A stretch of 62,988 nt of DNA, counting the filler, from Craspedostauros australis (Eukaryota): NCBI GenBank assembly GCA_030167865.1. It is 12 parts of 12 records of this genome, joined end to end, with 100 filler letters (N's around TTAATTAATTAA, not from the genome) between each part and the next. Parts side by side here need not be neighbours in the genome. Positions count along the whole stretch, not along the records: positions 60,988 to 62,988 come from JALAGF010005383.1; 11 more parts are not named here. One strand, written 5' to 3'. Both the position numbers and the translations under genes were made by a program. Positions 3,283-62,988 of the stretch are shown in pieces (the stretch's first letter is position 1; every line of letters begins with the position of its first letter). The notes below the pieces were generated by a model, which did no database searches, was not told the origin of the DNA, and saw nothing but the letters and a program-made list of their open reading frames with translations.

Positions 3283-5726
3283 GGAAGTTGGCGAACACCA
3301 AATCAACGTGGCCGCAGCCAATCGACACCATGTGGCGAAGATCAGCGAAGGAATTCCTCCGATGAACGATCACCATCGGCACGACAACGAAACAGATCAG
3401 GAGGATATCGAAATTAGAGCGTCGAACGGCACAGCAATGAGAGAGATGAAGATGGACGGCATTGCAACAAACATTCGTCATCACGTGGGGCCCTTCAATC
3501 AAATCGCCGTGGACGAAGCAGATCGTCGACACGCGATGCTGTCTACCATGAGAAGCTGTCTGGCACAAAGCCACTGCAACTCACACCAAAGAAAGCGGTC
3601 AGGAGCAAGAACGCGTCTCAGTACCGCTATCGCTCGATGAATGGTACCAAAACTCCCACTCCGTGATGCATCACGACACGATGGGATGGAATGAGATGGA
3701 TGGGCCGCTCCGTACTCGTATCATACTCATAGAGGTGTGGTAGACTCACGTCGCTGTAATGTAATACACCTACGAATGGATTGTAATGTTCTATGATATG
3801 TAGGATTGGAACAGTACCGCATGCACTATATCTGCTTGTGCAATAGAGCACTGTGATGAAGGCACCGGATGTTTCAAGAGATTGAAGGGCTGGATACTGC
3901 TCCCATGCTGCCTCCGCCTTGTCTACGACTAGTCTGGTCTGCTCTCGACGGTACATACGCACACAGAGTTGTTGCCGATGTCATTCACGAACGGATTGGA
4001 CATCCGTGGTTCCATCCATACTCCGCCATCAGCATCGTTGTTGGTTCGTTGCACAGACAAAGGACGCATGGCAGCAGCATTATCACAAGCCGTGCGGTCG
4101 TCACCATGCCACCGGATTCGCACACAGAGCAATCTCCACTCCAAGTTACACTACCAAGCAGATGCAAAGCTACAGTGCCGATGCCAGTCGATCCAAGTTT
4201 GTGGAAGAGACGATCTACGAAGAGCACATGGCGAACAAGGCAGAGAGAAATGATGGGAAGCCGCGAGGAGCATGGTTGTTGCACGGTTCCATCGACCGTC
4301 CCGTATCACGCTATTGTCCTCATCTCACCAGGAGTGGCACTCCCGCCATTGTGCCAAAACTGCAGTCGAGACCCTCGCCAAGTCCGAGGAGGAGCGATCA
4401 CTTGCCGTCGGAGTAACAATTGCCAGGGTCACCACCCATTCCAATCTTCGAAGCGACCAGTGCCAGCGTGGCGGAAATACAAGAACCGACGAGACAGCGC
4501 AGTCCAAACATCCAGAGAGCTTGACGAGCAACAGAAGAAACCAACGAACCAACGAGCAACCCCATGCAGAGTGCGAGTACTGTATTGCGGATCATGGTTG
4601 ACACAGAGTTCCATACAGCACAAGAAGTACGTGGTCAGCGATCCATGGCCCATGAGCACCATATCTCCACATATCCTCCTTTGTGGTGCTCCCAACTTCG
4701 TTCGTGAGGCGGATGTTCTTGTCGATCGCCTCGGTTGAGCATCGATGCTCTGGAAGTCACGAGCCAAGACGGTGGCGCTCATGCCTATTGATAGAATGCG
4801 CATGGTGTTGTGTGTTGGTGGTCCGTGTGGCAGGAACAGTGGAGGCGGCACGGTATCGCTCCGCCTGATGCTTGCCGAACATGCCAACTCATCCCAATAC
4901 GCAATGTCGTGTTGGTTTGATGTTGAGGACTCTTGTTGCCTGCGCGGATGGTGATTGTTGCAATGCGGTGGGATGGCAACCAGTCAAATCCAAATGAGAT
5001 GGGTCGCAACCAACAAAGGCAATCAACAAAGGCAGTCACATCAGTGGCTTCATCGGTGGCTTCATCGTTGTTCGAGGCATTGGCTCACACCTCAAGTTGG
5101 TGCTTGCGATGGCAGGCGGACGGGGGTCAGCGGTCTTGCAGATGCCACGATGACGCAAGCAAGCGTGGGCCATGGTGCACATGGTGATGGCGGCGGCGGT
5201 GGCGACGATGACAGCTGTCTGTGTTTCCGAAGACTTTGACGTTGTTTGCTTCGGATTGGTGTTGCGTTGATTGTGGCCAAACGAGAACTCTGTTGTGGTG
5301 CTTCTTTCTTGTTGTTGGTCGCACGCATTTTCGTGATGGATCGGAACAGAAAGATCCAATCCGCGCGAACCAGACGCGTTTGATCAAGAGAAGGAGACAA
5401 ACACAGGCAAACAGAAGGAGGAGACCNNNNNNNNNNNNNNNNNNNNNNNNNNNNNNNNNNNNNNNNNNNNNNNNNNATACTCAACCGCGTGAACAACAGA
5501 CATCGAATTGCCACTCATATTCATCACACAGCGTATGGTACTCATACTCATACTCATACTCATACTCATACTAATACAAGCTGTTGCATACACAAACATC
5601 GATATCTCTTCCATAGGCAGCTCCGACCACAGACATCCTCGACAGCCAATCCAACGTCTATCGTCCAACGTAAATCGTCCAACGTCTATCGTCCAGCAAC
5701 CATCGACCATCCACCACACTCTCAAA

Positions 5727-7478
5727 ATGCCGAGTGTTACGAACAAACAACTCATTGATGCTGCCAAGGCAGGTGACTTGTCAGTGTTGAAGGAGTGGAA
5801 GAAGCAGAACAAGACGCAGAATGACGGAGTTGATGTCAACAAGGTCAAAGACACGGATGGTCGGACTCCCCTTCATTGGGCATGCTACAACGGCCAGCTG
5901 GAGTGTGTGAAGTACCTCATCGAATCATGTGACGCGAACATCAACTTCAAAAGCAACGATGGTTCCACTCCCCTTCATCGGGCATGCTCCAACGGCCACC
6001 TGGAGTGTGTGAAGTACCTCATCGAATCATGTGAGGCAAACATCAACTGCAAAACCAATGATGGTTCCACTCCCCTTCATTGGACATGCTCCAATGGCCA
6101 CCTGGAGTGTGTGAAGTACCTCATCGAATCATGTGAGGCAAACATCAACTGCGAAGACGACAATATTTCCACTCCCCTTCATTGGGCATGCTTTTATGGC
6201 CACCTGGAGTGTGTGAAGTATCTCATTGAATCGTGTGAGGCGAACATCAACTGCAAAACCAACAATAGCTATACCCCCCTTCATGACACTTGCCACAACG
6301 GCCACCTGGAGTGTGTGAAGTACCTCATCGAATCATGTGAGGCGAACATCAACTGCAAAACCAACGACGGCTCCAGTCCCCTTCATCGGGCATGCCGGAA
6401 CGGCCACCTGGAGTGTGTGAAGTACCTCATCGAATCATGTGAGGCGAACATCAACTTCAAAGACAACAATGGTGACACTCCCCTTCATTGGACATGCCAC
6501 AACGGCCACCTGGAGTGTGTGAAGTACCTCATCGAATCATGTGAGGCAAACATCAACTGCAAAACCAATGATGGTTCCACTCCCCTTCATTGGACATGCT
6601 CCAATGGCCACCTGGAGTGTGTGAAGTACCTCATCGAATCATGTGAGGCAAACATCAACTGCGAAGACGACAATATTTCCACTCCCCTTCATTGGGCATG
6701 CTATTCTGGCCACTTGGAGTGTGTGAAGTATCTCATCGAATCATGTGAGGCAAACATCGACTGCAAAACCAACGATAGCGATACCCCCCTTCATGACGCT
6801 TGCCACAACGGCCACCTGGAGTGTGTGAAGTACCTCATCGAATCATGTGGGGCGAACATCAACTGCAAAGACAACCATGGAAACACTCCCCTTCATCGGG
6901 CATGCCGGAACGGCCACCTGGAGTGTGTGAAGTACCTCATTGAATCATGTGAGGCGAACATCAACTGCAAAGACAACCATGGAAACACTCCCCTTCATGT
7001 GGCATGCATTTATGACCAGCTGGAGTGTGTGAAGTACCTCATCGAATCAGGTGGGGCCGACGCCAACTGCGAAAACAACGATGGTTCCACTCCCCTTCAT
7101 TGGGCATGCCACAACGGCAAGCTGGAGTGTATCGAGTCCTTCATTAGAGGACTTTCGCCTTCAGTTCACCCACAAGTGCAACGACGCTTCCAACAAAACG
7201 AACAAGAGAATGAACAACTGCAACAACAGGTGAGACAGCAGTTGAAGCGAAAGAAGCAAGAGAATGAACAACAACAACAACAACAACAGTCGAGACACCA
7301 GTTGAAGCGGAAGAAGCAAGAGAATGAACACAAACACAGTAGCCACAAGAGGACCAACATCAACATTGGAGAAGACAGCTCAGATCCTTCCAAACCGAGA
7401 ACAGGGCAGACACCATCTTCTTGTGTGGACAGGGTGATGAGCAGCAACCAATCAAAGCAAACAGCGGAGTCCTCATGA
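5727..7478 (+). CDS. Ankyrin-repeat protein (13 tandem 34-aa repeats) with Gln-rich tail; probably the N-terminal part of an ANK-BTB protein
   Basis: ATG at 5727 (MPSVTNKQLIDAAKAGDL capping repeat). TPLH-x-(A/T)C-xx-GHLECVKYLIESCEANIN units recur every 102 nt from 5865 to 7089. Confidence 0.9.
   Translation: MPSVTNKQLIDAAKAGDLSVLKEWKKQNKTQNDGVDVNKVKDTDGRTPLHWACYNGQLECVKYLIESCDANINFKSNDGSTPLHRACSNGHLECVKYLIESCEANINCKTNDGSTPLHWTCSNGHLECVKYLIESCEANINCEDDNISTPLHWACFYGHLECVKYLIESCEANINCKTNNSYTPLHDTCHNGHLECVKYLIESCEANINCKTNDGSSPLHRACRNGHLECVKYLIESCEANINFKDNNGDTPLHWTCHNGHLECVKYLIESCEANINCKTNDGSTPLHWTCSNGHLECVKYLIESCEANINCEDDNISTPLHWACYSGHLECVKYLIESCEANIDCKTNDSDTPLHDACHNGHLECVKYLIESCGANINCKDNHGNTPLHRACRNGHLECVKYLIESCEANINCKDNHGNTPLHVACIYDQLECVKYLIESGGADANCENNDGSTPLHWACHNGKLECIESFIRGLSPSVHPQVQRRFQQNEQENEQLQQQVRQQLKRKKQENEQQQQQQQSRHQLKRKKQENEHKHSSHKRTNINIGEDSSDPSKPRTGQTPSSCVDRVMSSNQSKQTAESS
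5865..7140 (+). repeat. 102-bp coding tandem repeat (ankyrin), about 12.5 copies, with a 510-bp higher-order period
   Basis: Near-identical core CCTGGAGTGTGTGAAGTACCTCATCGAATCATGTGAGGC. Repeat 3 equals repeat 8 in translation; repeats 4-6 resemble 9-11. Confidence 0.95.
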
Positions 7479-51389: not shown

Positions 51390-51489
51390 NNNNNNNNNNN
51401 NNNNNNNNNNNNNNNNNNNNNNNNNNNNNNNNNTTAATTAATTAANNNNNNNNNNNNNNNNNNNNNNNNNNNNNNNNNNNNNNNNNNNN

Positions 51490-52600
51490 AGAGCAACGGG
51501 TTGCGGATGAATGTGACAGGGGATATCATGTGGACTCGGGAATTCGATGCCAGCGGCACAATCACCATTTGAACGAGGCCCATGTCGTGGTACTGGGGCA
51601 ACCATGAAAAGGTGGTAAATCGCTCCGAGAGCTGTGTCTCGTTTGCACCTTTTTCAAGGCATGTGAGGGAAAAGCTGTGAAACAGTTCAACGTTGGCTCT
51701 CAGGGCGTCGTGGGTCACCATCACGCCCTTGGGGTTGCCCGTGCTTCCAGATGTGTACTGGAGGAAGGCGAGGTCCGAACCTTTGATGTTGGGTTCATCG
51801 AATGAAGGTGGCGACGACGATGAGCGGCCGGACATGAGGCTGGAAAGGAAGCCAGTCTTGGCTTGCTTGTTCTTGCCGTTGGTCTTGTCGGCGATGAACG
51901 GATCATGGCGGATGATGCGATCGGTGACTTGGTACTTGACCCCGCTCGGCCACAAGGAGCGGCTCTTGGACGCCGGATTGGCGCGATCGGCAGCGCGGAG
52001 CATGTTGATGGATGTTTGGGTGAGGATGAGTGCTGGCGCACAATCCCCGATGACCTTGTTCATTTTGGTGAGAGACTTGACGAGCGGTGGTCCGGGAGGG
52101 TAGACCAGGACNNNNNNNNNNNNNNNNNNNNNNNNNNNNNNNNNNNNNNNNNNNNNNNNNNTGTTCATTTTGGTGAGAGACTTGACGAGCGGTGGTCCGG
52201 GAGGGTAGACCAGGACGGCCGTCACTCCTGCGCGGAGACATCCCATGAACATGGCGAAGAAGTGGAGTCCGAAGTCGTAGCAGAGGACGACACGGTCATC
52301 TTTCTTGGCACCCCACTTGTTGCGGATGAGGTGAGCGCAGTGTCCTGCTTCATCCCAGAGCTGTTGGAAGGTGTAGTTGTTGGTTGCCTTGCCTTTTTCA
52401 TTGTACCAGGTGGAGAAGACGGTGTCGGACTTGAGTTCGACGATGTACTTGATGTGTTCGATGAAGGACTTGGTTTGGATGGACTTGTGGATGATCTCGT
52501 GCTCAGTGGCGTTGGTGTTGGCGTTGGCGTTGGCGGTACCGGCTTCGATGTCATCGTCGACGGCGCGGTTTGCATCGGAGGGAGCGGATGGGTTGCCCAT
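51490..52600 (-). CDS. Fatty acyl-AMP ligase (FAAL)-like adenylation enzyme, N-terminal part, truncated at scaffold end
   Basis: GLHFFAMFMGCLRAG..VYPP, LAFLQYTSGSTGNPKGVMVTH, SWLPQYHDMGL and SPVTFIRNPL. Confidence 0.85.
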
Positions 52601-53225
52601 GTTGGAATGCGTCGTTGAAACGAGGGGTTGGTTGCAGATGTGGTTGTGTTCTGTTGTGTTGCGATTGGTGCAGCGTGGTTACTTTGATCTTGTCGATTTG
52701 TGAGTTGTTGGTTCTCGAGCTTCAGAATTGTGAGCAGTTGGACAATCATCGGCGTTGTGTTGTCTGGTGCCTTCTTCGGGCACATACGTGCTCGTACGAG
52801 TGCTGCCGCTGCATTTGTTATCCAGCGAGATGAATTCCTTCATCAGATTGTTCCGTGGAAGGATCGTGGAAGGAAGGTGTTGTTGGGTGATGTGTGCGCT
52901 GGTTGGAGTCGTAGGTGTGAACAAGACAATCGCAAGATACGGCGCTCTGTCGCTTCCGGTGGCCGCACTTTGGATCATGGGTGCAGATTCGTGGCCCGAT
53001 AGGAGAAGACTGCATACCAGCACTCCGCGCAACACGAAAACGAATACAGTTCTGCAGAGCGCAGTAGAGCATAGTACCAGGATGTCGTGATACAACCAAG
53101 AAACATATATCCGATCGCCGGACGAAGCAGCGTTCATGTGGTGTGCAGGACCCAAAAACAGTCGAGCAATTATTGGAGTGGGAAGAACGGGCAAGTTCGC
53201 GCAGACGTGACAGCCACACACTCTG

Positions 53226-53407
53226 TATTGAAACGGAGACGGTGGTAGGTATAAAGTCGTATCTTAGTGTGTTGATTTGCGGATTGTGTCCGGTTTGTTT
53301 CTTTTTCCTTTTCTTTGCGTTGCACCTTCTGTGCCTTTTCTGTGGCTGTTGTCGTTTGCTGCTGCTCGTGACTCAGCCGAGTCCTCGTGACTGGTTTCGC
53401 TCCAATA
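53226..53407 (-). mobile_element. Short 3' LTR (182 bp) of copia element C
   Basis: Follows PPT-like AAAAGGGGCG on the minus strand and is bounded by inverted TATTG/CAATA. Confidence 0.55.
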
Positions 53408-56400
53408 CGCCCCTTTTGGACGTGTCAGGGATGAAGACCTGCGAGGTCCTAACCACCTTCACGAGTGTCTTGGTCTGCTTGCGGTTGCCATGTCCAGCCT
53501 GATCTGGTTTCGTCGTGTCGCGCTTTGCTTTGGAAAGTGGCTTTGGTAGACGGAATAGTGACATGCGGATGAGGCGGTAGAACGTGTGCTTTGCCACGGG
53601 TTTCGTCAGCAAGTCGGCTTCGTTGTCCTCTGACGCGATGTGCACGAACTGCACAGCCTTGGCAGCGATTGCCTCACGGATGCGGTGGTATGCAATGCCA
53701 CAATGCTTCTTCTTGAGCACGCTGGTGGGTATGGTCGTGTTGATGACCACGGATTTGTTGTCACCCAAGAGTAGCGCGGGTCCATCGATGGGAACGCCCA
53801 TGACACGGAGCGCTGTTCTCAGCTCGACGATCATATCCACTGCGATGCGCGCGGCCACCAGCTCGGAACCATACGTAGACGACTCCACCGTCTTCTGCCG
53901 CTTGCAGAACGTACGCACCACCATGCCGTTGATCTTTGCCACAATGCCTGTGACGGATCTGCGTGTCACAACGTCGTGTGCATGATCAGCATCCACGTAC
54001 ACGGTGATTCTGGCTGGTTTCCCTTTTGGCCTTGGTTGATTGTGTGGCATCTCCTCAGTTGCTTGTGGATAGAACTCGATCCACTTGTTGTGTTCATCCG
54101 GATCTGCTTCTGGGTGTTGTGGTAGGGTTGGATCACACAGCAGCATCCCGTTCCGGTGGGTCTTGAGGTAGCCAAAGACTCGGGTCATGGCTTTCAGGTG
54201 GCCAATACGCGGAGTCATCGAGAAACGCGACAGTGCCATCGTCGCGAACTGCACGTCATAGCGACCCAGAGTGATGATCCAATTCGCACTGCCAATGAGC
54301 GTCCTGAATTTGCTTGCTTCTGCTGGATCCAGGAGATCTGTGTCGTCGGTCTCTGGATGGTATGCTTCCGCCATCGGGGTTGCCACCTTTGGTAGAGATT
54401 TCCCCAGTAGTGTCTCAATCTTCTCACATGCGCTTCCGATATACGTCTTTGCCGACAGCGCTGTGAACACACCTTCCTTCTGCCAGACGTCATCCAGTTG
54501 TGCAATGTTGCCTCCGAGATAGTACATGGGTACTCCGACTCCTTTCATGACGTATTTCTCCTGCAACACCTTCATGATGTCCATGGGTGATCTGCTGAAT
54601 ACAAGGACATCGTCGACATATGAAGCAATCATTTCATAGTGGTCTTCATGTTCTCTGATCCACAGGTCATTGTCGTACTGTGTTGGTTGGAAGCCGAGTT
54701 CGCGGAATGTGGATGCCAGGTGCTCATGGAATCTTGCACTGGAAGTTCGCAGCCCGTACAAGCCTTTGTGGATGATCATTGGCTTGCCTTCCAGTGCCCC
54801 AAATTCAGACCCTGCCATGACGTAGCATCGTTCACGAGTCTTGGCGTACAAAAATGCATTCCCAACGTCGCCTGCGCACACCTGGAGTCCGTTCATGGCA
54901 GAGACAACGAAGGCGATGCGGATGGTCTCAAATGCGACCACGCCCGAGTAGACATCTTCCACGGATGGATCAGACTTGTTCCCATTCGCCACGAGTCGTG
55001 CTTTGCGTCGTAGATCAAACTTCACGTCAAAGATGATGTGATACGGGATGCATTGGTAGGTGGATAGGTCATCTGCAGCCGTTGGAAGCCGAAAGGTACC
55101 ATAGTTGCTGATCTGCTGGAGCTCCTTTTGGAGTGCCTGTAGCCACAGCGTGTCTCCATTGAGTCTGTCGAGGTACATAGCGTGTCGAACGCTGTTGGGT
55201 ACCTGGACACCAAACTTGTATCGAACACCTTTCTTGGTTGCTTGCTTCTTCTTGACCATGTTCACCATCGTGCGTCGGATCTCATCGTTGTCCTCGATGA
55301 CATGTGTGACCCACTTGAATGCTGGGTGGTCGTGCAATGATTGGTCCTCCACATACTTGCTGATGATGTAGGGGTCCTGGAGCCGCATGTCGTCCACTCT
55401 GTGCCACGAGTTGGATCCGTCCATCCATCCCACATTGACCTTCCAGTGTTCGTTGGTGGATCCTTTGAAGCGAAGTTTGTGTCGGATGATACACGCCGCT
55501 CTGTTTTGCATGTCCTGTCCCTCAGCCATCTCCTCGATCAGGTCTTCGCAGAAGTCCGCATGGATGACGTAGTTGAGTTGCTTGATCTCGGCCCGTGTCA
55601 GCCCTGCCACGATTGTTCTTGGTTCCATGTCATCGAAGTGTTCCCTTGTTGGTGGTGACACATCCATGGGGTAGAAGTGTTCATGATTGAGAATACCAAC
55701 CTGTGCTTGACTGTGGTGCCCGAGCACGGTATGTGGTGATGTAGCAATGGGTTGGTCTGCCCCAATGGCCGCCATCAGTGTGCGGACGATGGACTTTCGT
55801 CCGTCTTCTGGCTTCCACGAGCGACCACCGCCCCTATCGCGGATGCGTTGGGAACGTCGCCCCTGCGTCTTCGCCTCTTCGGTATCGTTCTTCGCTGTAC
55901 CACTGTTTCCATCGCGCGCAAGAGTCCCCCCTTTCGCCGGTGTCTTGGCAACGCCATGACGCCTCGGTGAACGATGAGCAGGTACGCCGTCTTTGGCAGC
56001 TAGCGGACGCTGGTGAGGTTGCGTGGTTGTGGGTGTGGTTGCACGCCCCTGGACGTGGCGTCGTGCCTTGCGCGGTGGTCGCCGATGCTTCCTCAGCCGC
56101 TGATTCATGGGCAGTGGGGATGAATCCAATGCCAGCAGGGCATCCGGTGCATCGCGTTCTGCGTTCGGGTCAAGCTCCTTGCCAAACGGCAGCCGCTTGT
56201 TTTCCATGTTGGTGCGGAACGGTCGCACAACGCTGCGGACAAGTATGCGCTGCTTATCATCAGTGAGTACGAAGTACGTGAGTGCGTCTCCACACGAGTC
56301 AGCAACGCCAAGCCAGTAACCATTCTGTTCCTTGGGGTCTGGAAACGAGCTCTGCGGGTCAAGGTAGTATACCTTTTCATAGAACCGAAACGTGAGGAAC

Positions 56401-56528
56401 GGCGATATATCAATGGTCTCGCCATGCCGGACGGTGAGCGGTATGTTGTACCGGAGCGATTGATCCGCAGTCACGTTGTGGATGTCAGCGATGTATTTGG
56501 CAGCATGGAACCACGCCCGTGGTGGTGC
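53373..56528 (-). mobile_element. pol: CoDi-like Ty1/copia pol, intact 3' part (integrase C-terminus, chromo-like domain, RT, RNase H)
   Basis: Uninterrupted frame of more than 1030 aa: YKFGVQVP, FDVKFDLRRKARLVA, GDVGNAFL, GLYGLRTS, SYVDD, YVDADHA, ESSTYGSE and ADLLTK. Confidence 0.95.
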
Positions 56529-58989
56529 NNNNNNNNNNNNNNNNNNNNNNNNNNNNNNNNNNNNNNNNNNNNTTAATTAATTAANNNNNNNNNNNNNNNN
56601 NNNNNNNNNNNNNNNNNNNNNNNNNNNNGCACGCTGTAATCTTCAGCGGACGGGGACAACACAGGAAGCCAGCCAAAAGGAACTCGAGCACGTCGATCGC
56701 CTCAAGACAGAGCAAGAGGGAAAAAAATAATCCTAAATATTCTCGATAGATGACATCAACGATGAGAGAACTGCGGGTATTCTGCCATGAAGCAACAACC
56801 AGGCAGCCTGACCAAGATGCCAAATGCCGCATGCCTCGCGAAGGTCTCGTTCGTCGCCGACGCCAACCAAAGGAGCACACCGAAAAGGGGTTCGGTGTTT
56901 CCAATCTATGCATACATCCGTCCACGCATCCATGCATCCATGCACGCATCCTTCAGAACATCTGGTGGTTCTGACGAATTCCGCAACGACACTCATGTTG
57001 GTACCAATGCATGGCCCTTCGGAAAGAAAGTCTGCGTCGCAGTCTTACCAATGTTACACGTAAAGAAAGTCACTAGTACCAGATACACGAATACATGCGT
57101 CACGACGAGTACAAGTGCGACCGCGAATGCTACGACCGTCTTGACACCTGATGATTACGGTTGTCAGAATGGGTGTTGCTCTCCCGATGCTTCGATCGAC
57201 ATGTTGCGTAGTGGTTCTCCATGTCGCTATTCTGACAAGCACGAGCATTCTTAGAATGTGGAAGCAGAGGCACTCCATTCATANNNNNNNNNNNNNNNNN
57301 NNNNNNNNNNNNNNNNNNNATCGTCATCATGGTAATCATCATGGTGCGTGTAGTCGTAGTCATTGTCAAAGTGGGCAAGTAACTCTGATGGACGCATTGG
57401 CCCGTACTGCATGTTCAGGTTGGAACTCCGTGTCCGTACACGCAATTGCGAGAGTTGTTGGAGAGGCGACGTCACGGGCAGATTACTGCCGTCACGAGCG
57501 CTCAATCATCTCAAAGGCACTGCCCACCCGTCCACCGCACCATCTGACGAGCGCTGAGCTTTGGTAACGTTGACAACGCTGCAGACTGCACACAAGACCG
57601 CATCATGGACTCTGTCGCAATTTGCAACAGAGCAAAGACCAACGCAAAGACCNNNNNNNNNNNNNNNNNNNNNNNNNNNNNNNNNNNNNNNNNNNNNNNN
57701 NNGACTGCACACAAGACCGCATCATGGACTCTGTCGCAATTTGCAACAGAGCAAAGACCAACGCAAAGACCAATACCAACGTCCACGCTCGTATGTACAG
57801 AGTAAACATGTTAGGCAAACACGCGGCGAACATACCACTATTCTTCACGGTTGCCCTTCGCAGCCTACCCCCGCAAGCACAAACACGGACCGAGGTGATG
57901 CCCGTCCTTTGAGCTGTCACTCTCGATTACTATCGGTCGGCAAGTACTCGCATGGGACGTTACACCAAGCGAGCTGCGATCATCGACTGCCTCACTATTC
58001 TGAGAACGGCAAAGACGGACACTCGAACACACAACAGATCTTCATCACGATGCGATGAGAAGTCCTTGGAATGGATAGTCATCGTGCCAAAGAGGACGAG
58101 CATGAGTACGAGCACGACCACATGCTCACTCACATGGATGAACAGCGACTGCAGAATCTCCAGTAGACTGCGCAGCGTGATTGATCATGATCGATGATGA
58201 GCAATAGATGATCGACGATAGACGATATAACGGGTTCGGTTCTCCTTGATAGCGATGTCCAGCACCTACAACCGCAACACTATATGCAGCAGCAACAACG
58301 GAATGGAGGGACGGAAGGAGGCACTCGGATCAGTGGATTCCAATCAGATCTCATTCACACCCGTCAGTGCGTTGATGAGAATGAGCCGTGGAACGTCGCG
58401 TCTTCCATGAATAGATAGCCATTGTGTGCTTCGTCGAGAGAGCTTCTTCAACTGCGACTTCGGTCACGACTTGCATTCAGATACTCCGCATTGAAGAGCA
58501 TGCAACGACCACGGGCGAATTGATCGCGGCGGTACTCACTGTGACGGTCAGATCTGTCCTTGGAGGGAAGGTGACCTGCTCATCGTGGAGTGGAGCAGAG
58601 TTTATGGATGGGGTAGCCGTGTCGGTGACGAGTGACTTCTTGTACTCTACACGATATCGCTGATGCTGCTTCGTTGATGGTGGAGGTAGTGGCGACAATC
58701 AGGGCAGCCATGGAATGCCTTCATGGAATGCCTTTATGGAATTCATCCACATGCCCATGACATCGTTGCCGACGTTGCTGCTGCTGCTGCTGCTGATTGG
58801 GTTGTTGAGACAACGGCGAATGATGAGAACATCAAGTTGCACGGAATGCCTACATCAACCACATCCACTGGCGCAGATCAGCTGCGGTANNNNNNNNNNN
58901 NNNNNNNNNNNNNNNNNNNNNNNNNNNNNNNNNTTAATTAATTAANNNNNNNNNNNNNNNNNNNNNNNNNNNNNNNNNNNNNNNNNNNN

Positions 58990-60887
58990 CCTGGACATCG
59001 GAACGGTCGCTGGACTCGTCATGTCCACCGAAGGACCTATCATCGCGAAGTTCCACCAATACGCCCTCTATGGCAAGGGCAAGACGATTCACTCGACGAA
59101 TCAGCTCGGTGCCTTCGGTCTCGATGTCAACGAGCGTCCTCGCGANNNNNNNNNNNNNNNNNNNNNNNNNNNNNNNNNNNNNNNNNNNNNNNNNNNNNNN
59201 NNNNNNNNNNNNNNNNNNNNNNNNNNNNNNNNNNNNNNNNNNACACGCAAGGAGATTGACACGTACCCTCACGTGGATTTCACTGCCGACGAAGAGTGGG
59301 ACCCATCCACTCTCGACCACGAGTTCACTTTGCTGGACGGGACCTCCGATGGTGCCCCAGATGACGGCGTCCACTCACCGGACTCCATCGAAGTGTTCAC
59401 CAGTGAGACTGGTGACCCAACGCAGGGCGCTATCACCCGCGCCAAGCCGACGATCGACTATGAGGCCCTCCGTCCATACTTCGGATGGATCCCGGCCAGA
59501 AGAGTCCAAGACACTCTCAAGTGCACGTCCCAATGGTACCGCACCTCCGAGCGATTCACCATGAGAAAGCACTTCAAGACNNNNNNNNNNNNNNNNNNNN
59601 NNNNNNNNNNNNNNNNNNNNNNNNNNNNNNNNNNNNNNNNNNNNNCACACCTGCACACGACGATGGTGTGCCAGGCCATGGTGGCAGCACGATGATGCAA
59701 GTATACGTGGCCGTGGATTCTCGCTTCACTGCAGGATTCCCCATGACATCGGAGAAGCAAGTCGCTTCCACTCTCCAAGACTTCATCCGGCGTCATGGAG
59801 CTCCTGACCTCCTGATGTCCGATAACGCGAAATCCGAGATCGGATTCAAGGTACAAGACATCCTTCGACAGTACTCCATCGCTGACCATCAGAGCGAGCC
59901 GGAGCACCAGCACCAGAACGCCGCAGAGAGGCGTATCCAAGACATCAAGCGCATGACGAACGGCATCATGGACAGGACGGGCACACCTGCTCGCTTCTGG
60001 CTCATATGCACCATGTATGTCATTGTGCTCTTCAACCACTTGGCTCAACGCACGGCAGGAAACGTCACACCGATGCAGGCAGCCTACGGACACCGTCCCG
60101 ATGTGAGCAAGTTCCTTGCCTACCGATGGTGGCAACCGGTGTACTACCGTGTTGAGAAGCCTGGCTTTCCCAGCCAGTCCAAGGAGCGCAAGGGGAGATG
60201 GGCCGGACCCTGTCTCCACAAAGGTGACGAACTCACCTTCTGGGTGTTGGACGATGACACCCAACAGCTCCTCCCACGATCCTCGATCCGTGCAGCCGAC
60301 GAGCACGGCTCTCGCAACCTGCGTGTCGACTTTCCCCTGGCCGACGTTGGGGAGGAAGACGGCTCGGACACGAACCCACTTGATGATGGGGAGCTTGACG
60401 ACGACGTTCCAGTGCCTGATGGAATGCAACCAGTTGTCCATTCCCTCGGAGACGCCGTTCTTTTCGCTTCTGCGGAGTCCGATCCTGGAACGNCGGNCAT
60501 GGCAAGAGTCTCCATCCCTCGATTCACACCAGAGGATCTCATCGGCAAGACCTTCCTGTACGACCGCGACGGACAGAGAGTCAAGGCCGAAGTCATCCAA
60601 CGCGTCAACGATGCAGATGCTGCGAACCACCAGCGAATCAAGATGTTGCTCGCCTTCGACGATGGAGCCACCAACGATCTCATCTCCTACGTCCAGCTGT
60701 CCGACATCATCGAACAGCAGCTCGAACGCAACGAAGACGACGAAGACGGAGTATGGGGATTCCAAGGCATCATCGGCCACGAAGGACCTCTCACTCCGAA
60801 CGTCAAGACCTACAAGGGGTCCCGATACAATGTCATTGTACAATGGGATGACGGATCAACAACATCCGAACCACTCTCCACCATGTT
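58990..60887 (+). mobile_element. pol: CoDi-like copia pol fragment (protease end, integrase core, chromo-like domain)
   Basis: HQYALYGKGKTIHS, LRPYFGWIP, LQDFIRRHGAP..SDNAKSE, SEPEHQHQNAAERRIQ and IIGHEGPL..YKGSRYNVIVQW. Confidence 0.92.
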
Positions 60888-60987
60888 NNNNNNNNNNNNN
60901 NNNNNNNNNNNNNNNNNNNNNNNNNNNNNNNTTAATTAATTAANNNNNNNNNNNNNNNNNNNNNNNNNNNNNNNNNNNNNNNNNNNN

Positions 60988-62352
60988 GGTTCCTGATCTC
61001 GGCTTGGATCATCTGGGCCTTGTTGGTCGCCGCTACGCCAGAGGCGTACTCCTCCTTCAACATCATGTAGACGCCATGTCCATCCTCCTTGTCGGCGTAC
61101 GGCAAGAGACAGTTGCGGCTCTTCATGGTGCGAAGGGAGTTCGAGAGAACATAGTACAGGAACGTACGTTGCTCTTCGAACAGGGCGAGCTCTTCACTCG
61201 CTGGCAGGTACTCCGGATCGACGGCGTTCTTGATTCCATGAGCAGCTGCGGTGGCTCGGAGACGGCGATCGAACTGCAGGAACTGCTCATCGTTCTTCAG
61301 GGTCGGGTAGTCGCTCAGGTTGCGCTTGGTGCCACGCTTGAAGGCCGCGACATCGTCCGAAGATGGGGTAGACGAGGGGACCACGTCAGGTGTGGGCACC
61401 TCTGCCACGGTTGTCTTCGGTTCTGCCTTCTTCTCCTTCTTCATGAAGGTCTGAAGGCGAGCTGCATTCAGCTCAAGCCAGGTGCTGGCTTCCATGCCTC
61501 CTTGGCTGTCGTACCAGCGCTCCAGCGCAAGGATCTTGTGCACATGCAGCGCGGCAAGCTTACAGTCGTAGGGTTCGCTACCCTCCTTGGAGATGGTGAT
61601 GCGGAGGCCGTCCAGGTCCTCCTTCGTCAACAGCGTGAGGTCGTCGATGTCCTCTACGCCAGATGAGGTGATGACTCGACGCTCGTCGGAGTCGTTCTTG
61701 ATCCCNNNNNNNNNNNNNNNNNNNNNNNNNNNNNNNNNNNNNNNNNNNNNNNNNNGAACGTACGTTGCTCTTCGAACAGGGCGAGCTCTTCACTCGCTGG
61801 CAGGTACTCCGGATCGACGGCGTTCTTGATTCCATGAGCTGCTGCGGTGGCTCGGAGACGACGATCGAACTGCAGGAACTGCTCATCGTTCTTCAGGGTC
61901 GGGTAGTCGCTCAGGTTGCGCTTGGTGCCACGCTTGAAGGCCGCGACATCGTCCAAAGATGGGGTAGACGAGGGGACCACGTCCGGTGTGGGCACCTCTG
62001 CCACGGTTGTCTTCGGTTCTGCCTTCTTCTCCTTCTTCATGAAGGTCTGAAGGCGAGCTGCGTTCAGCTCAAGCCAGGTGCTGGCTTCCATGCCTCCTTG
62101 GCTGTCGTACCAGCGCTCCAGCGCAAGGATCTTGCGCACATGCAGTGCGGCAAGCTTGCAGTCGTAGGGTTTGCTACCCTCCTTGGAGATGGTGATGCGG
62201 AGGCCGTCCAGGTCCTCCTTCGTCAACAGCGTGAGGTCGTCGATGTCATCTACGCCTGATGAGGTGATGACTCGACGCTCGTCGGAGTCGTTCTTGATCC
62301 CAACCGCCTTGAGGGCGTGGTTGAGGATGTCCAGTGGGTTCGTGGATGTCAT
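60988..62352 (-). mobile_element. gag: CoDi-like gag N-terminal region (element D), present as two overlapping near-identical copies across a gap
   Basis: FKRGTKRNLSDYPTLKND..RATAAAHG..VDPEYLP..LFEEQRTFLYYVL. Confidence 0.85.
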
Positions 62353-62539
62353 CTTGGAGATGATCGGGTTCGTTCTGTCTCTTCACAGCGGATGCGCTCG
62401 GGTGATGAGGGTTCAGTTGGTCGGCAACAGGCTGTTGCGGACTCGTTCAATGCAATTGCGGTTCTGGTGCTATCACGTCGTCACGTGATGCTCGTTCGGT
62501 CAGCTGGGATGCAGCTGTCTCGGGATGGGGTCTGTTCGT

Positions 62540-62582
62540 TCACTCAGTCAGCTCGGGACGTAGAGTATTGCGACTGTTAATC
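62540..62582 (-). promoter_or_regulatory. Primer-binding site of element D, complementary to the 5' half of tRNA-Asn(GUU)
   Basis: Plus strand AGCTC..GTAGAG..TGCGACTGTTAATC resembles a tRNA D-arm plus anticodon arm with GTT, and directly abuts the LTR end (TGTTAG at 62583). Confidence 0.65.
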
Positions 62583-62988
62583 TGTTAGACTTGAGGAATT
62601 GGTGGTAACGTAAGGGGAAACGCGTCCTTCTGCAATTGATCAGATTGAGAAGGTGGCGTTCACTGGAAGTCTGTTGGAAACTCAAATGTTATTACAAACT
62701 TAGGAGTTGTGAGCTTACTCTNNGACCTCTGTTCATGTCCATGCCTCTGCTCTTGCATTCCTCTGTTCTGCAAGCATCGGATAGGATCTTTACATCTCTT
62801 CAGGTTCAACTGGTTTGGGTCAGTAGCTGGCTCACAGTATCGTTCGTGTTTCGTGGTACCTTGTCTATGGTACCCAGTACTTTGGTACATCTTCATTTTC
62901 GTTCCTCGTCGAGCTATTCGCTCGTAATGTGACCATTTCATGGTCCGTGTTGGTTCAGGATACGATTCATACGCACAACTAAGCTGGA
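62583..62988 (-). mobile_element. 5' LTR of element D (outer end not seen)
   Basis: Minus strand ends ...GTCTAACA immediately before the PBS, 230 nt upstream of the gag ATG. Confidence 0.6.

Follow-up and report, generated by a model that had tools for sequence, protein, structure and literature searches.

A copia-type retrotransposon fragment of Craspedostauros australis with a putative primer-binding site for the anticodon arm of tRNA-Asn

Results

The window analysed here, a stretch of 62,988 nucleotides from the Craspedostauros australis assembly GCA_030167865.1, is a chain of unplaced scaffolds with 11 N44-TTAATTAATTAA-N44 linkers and many 50-N gaps. The linkers (a six-frame stop spacer found at 11 sites between 24247 and 60987 of the window, for example at 60888-60987) connect unrelated scaffolds, and features on the two sides of a linker are therefore not genomic neighbours. 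The element fragment that is the subject of this work makes up the last scaffold, from 60988 to the window end; this scaffold begins inside a gag gene and is cut at the window end.

All parts of the fragment lie on the minus strand, referred to below as the element strand. The outermost is a putative 5' LTR, of which the 3' part only is present (62583..62988, at least 406 nt, with the element-strand end ...CCTCAAGTCTAACA), the rest being cut off by the window end. On the element strand ...TCTAACA, which ends at 62583, directly abuts GATTAACAGTCGCA (62569..62582, minus strand), the putative primer-binding site (PBS); on the plus strand 62569-62582 reads TGCGACTGTTAATC, and TGTTAGA follows from 62583. 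The leader of 230 nt, which is free of TGG on the element strand, consists of a stretch adjoining the PBS (62540..62568, minus strand) with D-arm-like blocks, a likeness not above chance in the window copy (see below), and of the remaining untranslated part up to the gag start (62353..62539, minus strand). The blocks are AGCTC (62550-62554) and GTAGAG (62560-62565), as read on the plus strand. A sequence-only reading of this stretch had reported an LTR end ...CTAACA followed by a site other than TGG, together with these two blocks, and all of these letters are present.

A gag-like ORF lies on the same strand as the LTR and the PBS and downstream of both, with its ATG at 62352, 230 nt past the PBS. 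Its first part (61756..62352, minus strand) encodes 199 amino acids up to an N gap and is recognized by the gag-family HMM (E 2e-65); a second, overlapping piece (60988..61705, minus strand) encodes 239 amino acids. Positions 61160-61459 repeat positions 61756-62055 as a 300-nt direct repeat of 99% identity astride a 50-N gap, which suggests either that an overlap of contigs was left uncollapsed or that two nearly identical copies or haplotypes are present.

The window holds one LTR-like stretch, which is partial, and no second copy of 62531-62988 was found within it. We found neither informative terminal inverted repeats at the putative LTR ends nor a target-site duplication for the single, cut LTR copy. 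From the CA end, the adjoining PBS and the relatives described below we infer that 62583 is probably the end of the LTR and its boundary with the PBS. The element strand lacks TGG between 62741 and 62333, a span that begins 158 nt upstream of the putative PBS and takes in the whole leader, and there is therefore no canonical 3'-end PBS nearby. The nearest canonical candidate is a CA|TGG at 62742/62741, 158 nt upstream of the putative PBS.

The complement of the putative PBS, TGCGA-CTGTTAA-TC, reads as the 5-nt 5' strand of an anticodon stem, a 7-nt loop with the anticodon GTT, and two nucleotides of the 3' strand, which would correspond to nt 27-40 of tRNA-Asn(GUU). We scanned two public collections, one of metagenome contigs and one of viral sequences, for the exact 14-mer; the loci discussed here are samples among the matches listed. 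Among the matches listed, 41 of 117 metagenome loci and 65 of 120 loci from the viral collection have a tRNA-Asn called by ARAGORN at the 14-mer, and the two collections combined gave at least 109 tRNA-Asn genes with the 14-mer, with 54 distinct 5' parts. All of the listed genes have it as nt 27-40, after ...AGCTC-loop-AGAGC(G/A), so that the complement of the window PBS matches nt 27-40 of the ARAGORN-called genes at 14 of 14 positions. Some of the listed genes encode CCA at their 3' ends (bacterial style) and others have T runs and no CCA (eukaryotic style); since both carry the 14-mer, the arm exists in several kinds of tRNA-Asn genes. These called genes show that the 14-mer belongs to the anticodon arm of genuine tRNA-Asn. 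This bears out two points of the sequence-only reading: that the site complements the Asn(GUU) anticodon arm, as the identical 14-mer in the at least 109 called genes attests, and that it has the register of a 3'-truncated tRNA primer, the PBS complement ending at nt 40, two bases past the loop. Within the window itself ARAGORN called no tRNA gene over the whole length.

Three metagenome loci (L020, L034 and L092) have bacterial-style tRNA-Asn 3' parts, with encoded CCA, that begin within the anticodon arm, the 5' part being replaced by unrelated DNA; these resemble tRNA-Asn attachment sites occupied by integrated elements. Four others (L061, L071, L098 and L107) share a context that is neither tRNA nor LTR-like, ...GGTCGCATTCAGATA|14-mer|GTAAAATATTGACC..., an unexplained repeated sequence.

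Most of the non-tRNA matches in the two collections resemble chance matches in coding DNA, among them the majority of the 76 listed metagenome loci at which ARAGORN called no tRNA-Asn. In a subset of the 76, the 14-mer, read on the element strand, is immediately preceded by CA or TA, and a short leader and an ORF come after it. In L067 it follows ...CTTGACA (...CTACTTGACA|14-mer), and 491 nt downstream lies the N-terminus of the protein P0111 (35 of 36 amino acids identical), which is related to the window gag (E 1.1e-11). In a group of five loci (L035, L051, L052, L070 and L089, called the L051 group) it follows ...CAGTTTCA (...GGCTCAGTTTCA|14-mer), and the ORF after it is recognized by the gag-family HMM (E 1.5e-9) and matched by the gag relative P0011 in tblastn (E 7e-6). 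The LTR sides and leaders of L067 and the L051 group are unrelated to those of the window element, CA plus the 14-mer being the sole common parts. Conservation of the motif in related copies, on which the sequence-only reading depended, holds for the 14-mer itself in these gag relatives and not for the LTRs and leaders around it. Within the L051 group, L089 has the PBS, leader and ORF in common with the others and unrelated DNA upstream, and homology therefore ends exactly at the 5' edge of the 14-mer. L002, L008 and L018 have an LTR-like end and the 14-mer in common, with the downstream sequence of L018 deviating. These findings support the view that a putative PBS for the tRNA-Asn(GUU) anticodon arm has been kept in distant gag relatives.

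Counted over families, TG or TA adjoins the 14-mer (tRNA-sense strand) in 15 of 61 non-tRNA metagenome families, versus 12.5% expected (binomial p = 0.007, for the matches listed). In the viral collection, which served as a control without eukaryotic retroelements, the figure was 4 of 41 families (among the matches listed), and no polyprotein match was found among the listed viral-collection loci. About half of the 15 LTR-like metagenome families may be chance occurrences. A tblastn search of the window gag against the 117 metagenome loci gave nothing significant.

The affiliation of the element comes from its gag. An exhaustive protein search returned 904 gag relatives at E <= 0.001 and 138 at E <= 1e-10; word-index protein searches with the gag, at near and at longer lengths, gave no match. 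No Pfam family was detected on the window gag, on the integrase-like ORF described below or on the 14 longest relatives listed. A locus search based on gag found none in viral contigs and gave 82 pattern matches in metagenome contigs, of which 0 were confirmed. In five of the relatives (P0037, P0001, P0113, P0070 and P0011) gag is followed by a region 40-57% identical to an integrase-like ORF at 59647-60885 (plus strand), which lies on another scaffold of the window within a copia-type pol piece (59464-60939) and in which Pfam rve was undetected. Four of the five (P0070 being the exception) have a further match, to the N-terminal 55-114 residues (about 100 in three cases) of an RVT_2 ORF at 53376-56528 (minus strand), the only RVT_2 that Pfam finds in the window, again on another scaffold and within a copia-type pol piece (53373-56576). 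P0154, a protein of 1762 amino acids from the cluster of P0001, has gag at residues 30-239 and RVT_2 at 1244-1456, and the second window gag piece is 31% identical to its residues 30-239 (E 3e-38). Because gag, the integrase-like region and RVT_2 are joined in the polyproteins of relatives, the gag family is part of single-ORF copia-type elements with integrase before reverse transcriptase (RT), pol being unlinked in the window copy. That copy is without an RT, and the order of integrase and then RT is the one seen in relatives. No LTR resembling 62583-62988 was found after the RVT_2 pol piece (53373-56576). Downstream of the RVT_2 ORF there are about 700 nt and then a host ORF resembling AMP-dependent synthetases (51434-52678).

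The pairing with tRNA-Asn had been proposed to extend over about 40 nt, from the anticodon arm to the D arm. In the window copy the proposed extension does no better than chance: when the 30 nt adjoining the PBS were aligned locally with 16 tRNA-Asn D-arm regions, p was 0.18 (over 300 shuffles), the duplex energy of the window site with tRNA nt 8-40 gave p = 0.15, and a profile of the 54 tRNA-Asn 5' parts aligned to the window at positions 28-41 only, that is, at the 14-mer. A search of 62450-62680 with Rfam found no tRNA-like match, its one hit being a chance match to a miRNA (E 6.2). The proposed extended pairing is therefore not upheld for this copy.

Weak D-arm likeness is, however, enriched in the LTR-adjacent occurrences as a class. 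A D-arm alignment score at least as high as that of the window was reached by 8 of 16 LTR-adjacent families (the window included) versus 2 of 46 others (Fisher p = 1.3e-4), and with the window left out by 7 of 15 (p = 4e-4; Mann-Whitney p = 0.007), in a test where the threshold was chosen after the data were seen and contexts without a 30-nt flank (L002, L045 and L093) were dropped. In the viral control 5 of 41 families reached the score of the window, and 0 of these were LTR-like. The duplex-energy p-values combined to 0.001 for 14 LTR-like families (the window and L094 left out) and to 0.29 for 44 others. The length of the alignment to the tRNA-Asn profile was 31 nt for L090, 25 for L116, 20 for L018 and L067, and 14 for the window.

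The 31 nt of L090 (L090:58-88) align to profile positions 11-41, which take in the D arm and the anticodon arm, and the alignment stops at nt 40, before TG. This is the longest tRNA-Asn-like PBS region among the loci, and it lies on a short contig without a classifiable gene.

Directly after the PBS the element strand of several LTR-adjacent families reads A, two or three nucleotides, and CTC(T/C). This pattern, which is exploratory and was defined after the data were seen, occurs in the window (as ATACTCT), L004/L011, L067, L090, L094 and L116, and elsewhere in 1 of 46 other families (L108) and 0 of 41 viral families; it would pair with tRNA nt 21-25, leaving a small bulge. The base that faces tRNA nt 26 is A in 11, G in eight, C in two and T in none of 21 LTR-adjacent loci. 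In 19 of the 21, then, it is an A or G, which is unable to pair with G26 or A26, and perfect pairing therefore ends at nt 27. We read the 14-nt length of the PBS as bounded on one side by a cut at nt 40 and on the other by nt 26. In eukaryotic tRNAs G26 is usually dimethylated, a modification that stops reverse transcriptases.

Discussion

The above results suggest, with a probability that we put at roughly three in four, that a copia-type LTR retrotransposon has its 5' end in the last scaffold, in minus-strand orientation, and would prime from a PBS for the anticodon arm of tRNA-Asn. The complementarity of the site to the arm, its position abutting the CA end, its strand and its conservation in distant relatives are observations. 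In the process that they point to, cleavage of a tRNA-Asn within the 3' strand of the anticodon stem, two bases past the loop, would leave a piece of about 40 nt with its 3' end at nt 40; this piece would anneal to the PBS at 62582-62569, and its 3' OH would be extended by the RT of the element into U5, giving minus-strand strong-stop DNA. We consider it likely that minus-strand synthesis is started in this way; we infer a host tRNA-Asn with a matching arm, the use of a cut tRNA as primer, the enzyme that cuts it and the 5' extent of the primer. In cells the loop nucleotides of tRNA-Asn are modified (queuosine at 34 and t6A at 37). These modifications might hinder pairing with the PBS, a concern that applies equally to the accepted cases of copia and Ty5. 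The core of the sequence-only reading, a copia-type element with a putative PBS for the tRNA-Asn anticodon arm that is kept in distant relatives, probably holds.

A link to stress-induced tRNA halves, which had also been suggested, was rejected. Stress-induced halves are cut in the loop, whereas the pairing here goes beyond the loop and takes in two bases of the 3' stem strand, up to nt 40.

The D-arm-like sequence beside real PBSs could have no function in priming and instead be a decayed footprint, an explanation that concerns the extension only and that we regard as possible though doubtful. Plus-strand strong-stop synthesis would then occasionally run past nt 26 into the D arm of the primer, and the copied letters would be fixed beside the PBS and subsequently decay. 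Such an origin would suit a likeness that takes in D-loop letters, has indels and varies among families (profile lengths of 31, 25, 20 and 14 nt), and that is enriched at the level of the class without strong matches in single elements. The recurrent A-N(2-3)-CTC(T/C), however, albeit a post-hoc pattern, resembles a kept pairing with nt 21-25 across a bulge more than it resembles random decay. A fuller picture can be drawn, in which a widespread environmental copia clade (hundreds of gag relatives) would be primed by a 5' fragment of tRNA-Asn, with the nt-40 cut and the modified G26 as the limits of the PBS, a conserved extension that pairs with nt 21-25 around a bulge (A facing G26), and decayed D-arm copies that represent read-through footprints; taken as a whole it seems to us rather unlikely. 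If it were true, D-arm footprints beside PBSs would be a natural record of where tRNA modification halts the polymerase of a retrotransposon.

Three explanations bear on the PBS itself. According to the first, the 14-mer is a chance resemblance, and the element has its real primer site or LTR boundary at another position, such as the CA|TGG at 62742/62741. The boundary is drawn from one cut copy, that CA-preceded TGG lies 158 nt upstream, and 14-mers do recur by chance in huge collections. However, the identical 14-mer recurs at the same place and on the same strand in distant gag relatives whose LTRs and leaders are unrelated, and a chance match in the window is disfavoured because relatives would not share one; a primer site at the CA|TGG would moreover leave the Asn site common to the relatives unexplained. 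We therefore regard a chance resemblance as improbable.

According to the second, which we consider very improbable, the element primes without a cut tRNA, by self-priming of the Tf1 type or by using an uncut tRNA in some other way. Priming is indeed deduced here from sequence alone, and the start of the LTR, and with it of the transcript, lies outside the window. Yet the 406 nt of the LTR part contain no stretch that complements the PBS over 7 nt or more, and an internal tRNA site provides a 3' OH only if the tRNA is cut.

Scarcely credible, finally, is that 62540-62582 is the decayed 5' half of a tRNA-Asn gene or a tRNA-derived repeat beside the LTR and outside the element, for, even though the D-arm-like blocks are in order and about rightly spaced and there are tRNA-Asn genes that other inserts interrupt at the anticodon arm (L020, L034 and L092), the place and orientation of the 14-mer relative to gag are kept in relatives, the tRNA profile and Rfam detect no tRNA beyond the 14-mer, and the stretch sits between the LTR end and the gag of one element.

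Priming from a cut tRNA-Asn would have well-known counterparts. Drosophila copia and yeast Ty5 use a half-molecule of initiator tRNA-Met as primer, cleaved in the anticodon stem and ending two bases past the loop. They differ from the window element in the tRNA, which is initiator tRNA-Met there and would be tRNA-Asn(GUU) here, where the primer is deduced from the sequence alone.

Priming by half-tRNAs, as in copia and Ty5 (PMC5371799), is, in the portions of the literature available to us, reported for PBSs of Ty1/copia lineages only (PMC6317226, PMC10886601, PMC5445492). Among plants, Neumann 2019 describes 1/2 tRNA-Met in Osser, Bryco and Gymco-II and 1/2 tRNA-Ile in Bianca (PMC6317226). 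These lineages resemble the window element in being Ty1/copia with half-tRNA primers, the type of primer being a lineage trait in that account (PMC6317226); they differ from it in host group and in the tRNA, and the portions of the paper available to us place tRNA-Asn only among 3'-end PBSs (2% of elements) and give no 1/2 tRNA-Asn for any of the lineages (PMC6317226).

In fungi, Kojima 2024 reports PBSs for the anticodon loops of tRNA-Tyr, Ile, Asp and iMet in copia elements of rusts and in Helenus TRIMs (PMC10886601), which, in contrast to the window element, belong to rust fungi and are mostly non-autonomous (PMC10886601). In the available text of the same paper tRNA-Asn-GTT is named once, for a copia-mobilized fungal element, by the name of the tRNA and without the paired bases (PMC10886601). 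The fungal copia element FunCo1 has a PBS, ATTAAGAGTCT, that is complementary to an internal region of tRNA-Lys (PMC5445492). Over their overlap this PBS and that of the window differ in one anticodon base and in the last base; the FunCo1 site is assigned to tRNA-Lys with a shorter reported match (PMC5445492), whereas the window site points to tRNA-Asn.

The CoDi elements of diatoms (Maumus 2009) are copia-type, mostly with TG/CA LTR ends and with LTRs of 153-844 bp (PMC2806351). They are like the window element in being copia-type; the label CoDi for the latter was given by the sequence-only reading, and the window copy is without an RT by which to place it. What is available of the main text of Maumus 2009 makes no mention of a tRNA or a PBS (PMC2806351).

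Full-text searches of the literature yielded nothing further on an Asn half-primer or on a diatom PBS of this kind. The sequence-only reading knew of no description of an Asn half-primer; its suggestion of novelty is weakened by the single mention of tRNA-Asn-GTT (PMC10886601) and by the half-primers other than Met that are in print (PMC6317226, PMC10886601, PMC5445492). The kind of priming is thus already known, and the half-tRNA primers in print are Met, Ile, Lys, Tyr and Asp.

The choice of primer is a lineage trait of LTR retrotransposons, and it binds an element to one host tRNA and to the enzyme that cuts it. If our reading is true, tRNA-Asn would be added to Met, Ile, Lys, Tyr and Asp as a half-tRNA primer, for a copia family of protist type that is abundant in environmental sequence. 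An Asn PBS leaves the general picture of priming unchanged. The exact 14-mer could be used as a tag to locate the 5' ends of such elements.

Far from the element and outside its scaffold, positions 5493-7478 of the window (plus strand) contain an ORF of 661 amino acids that consists nearly entirely of ankyrin repeats (Pfam Ank_2, E 6e-151).
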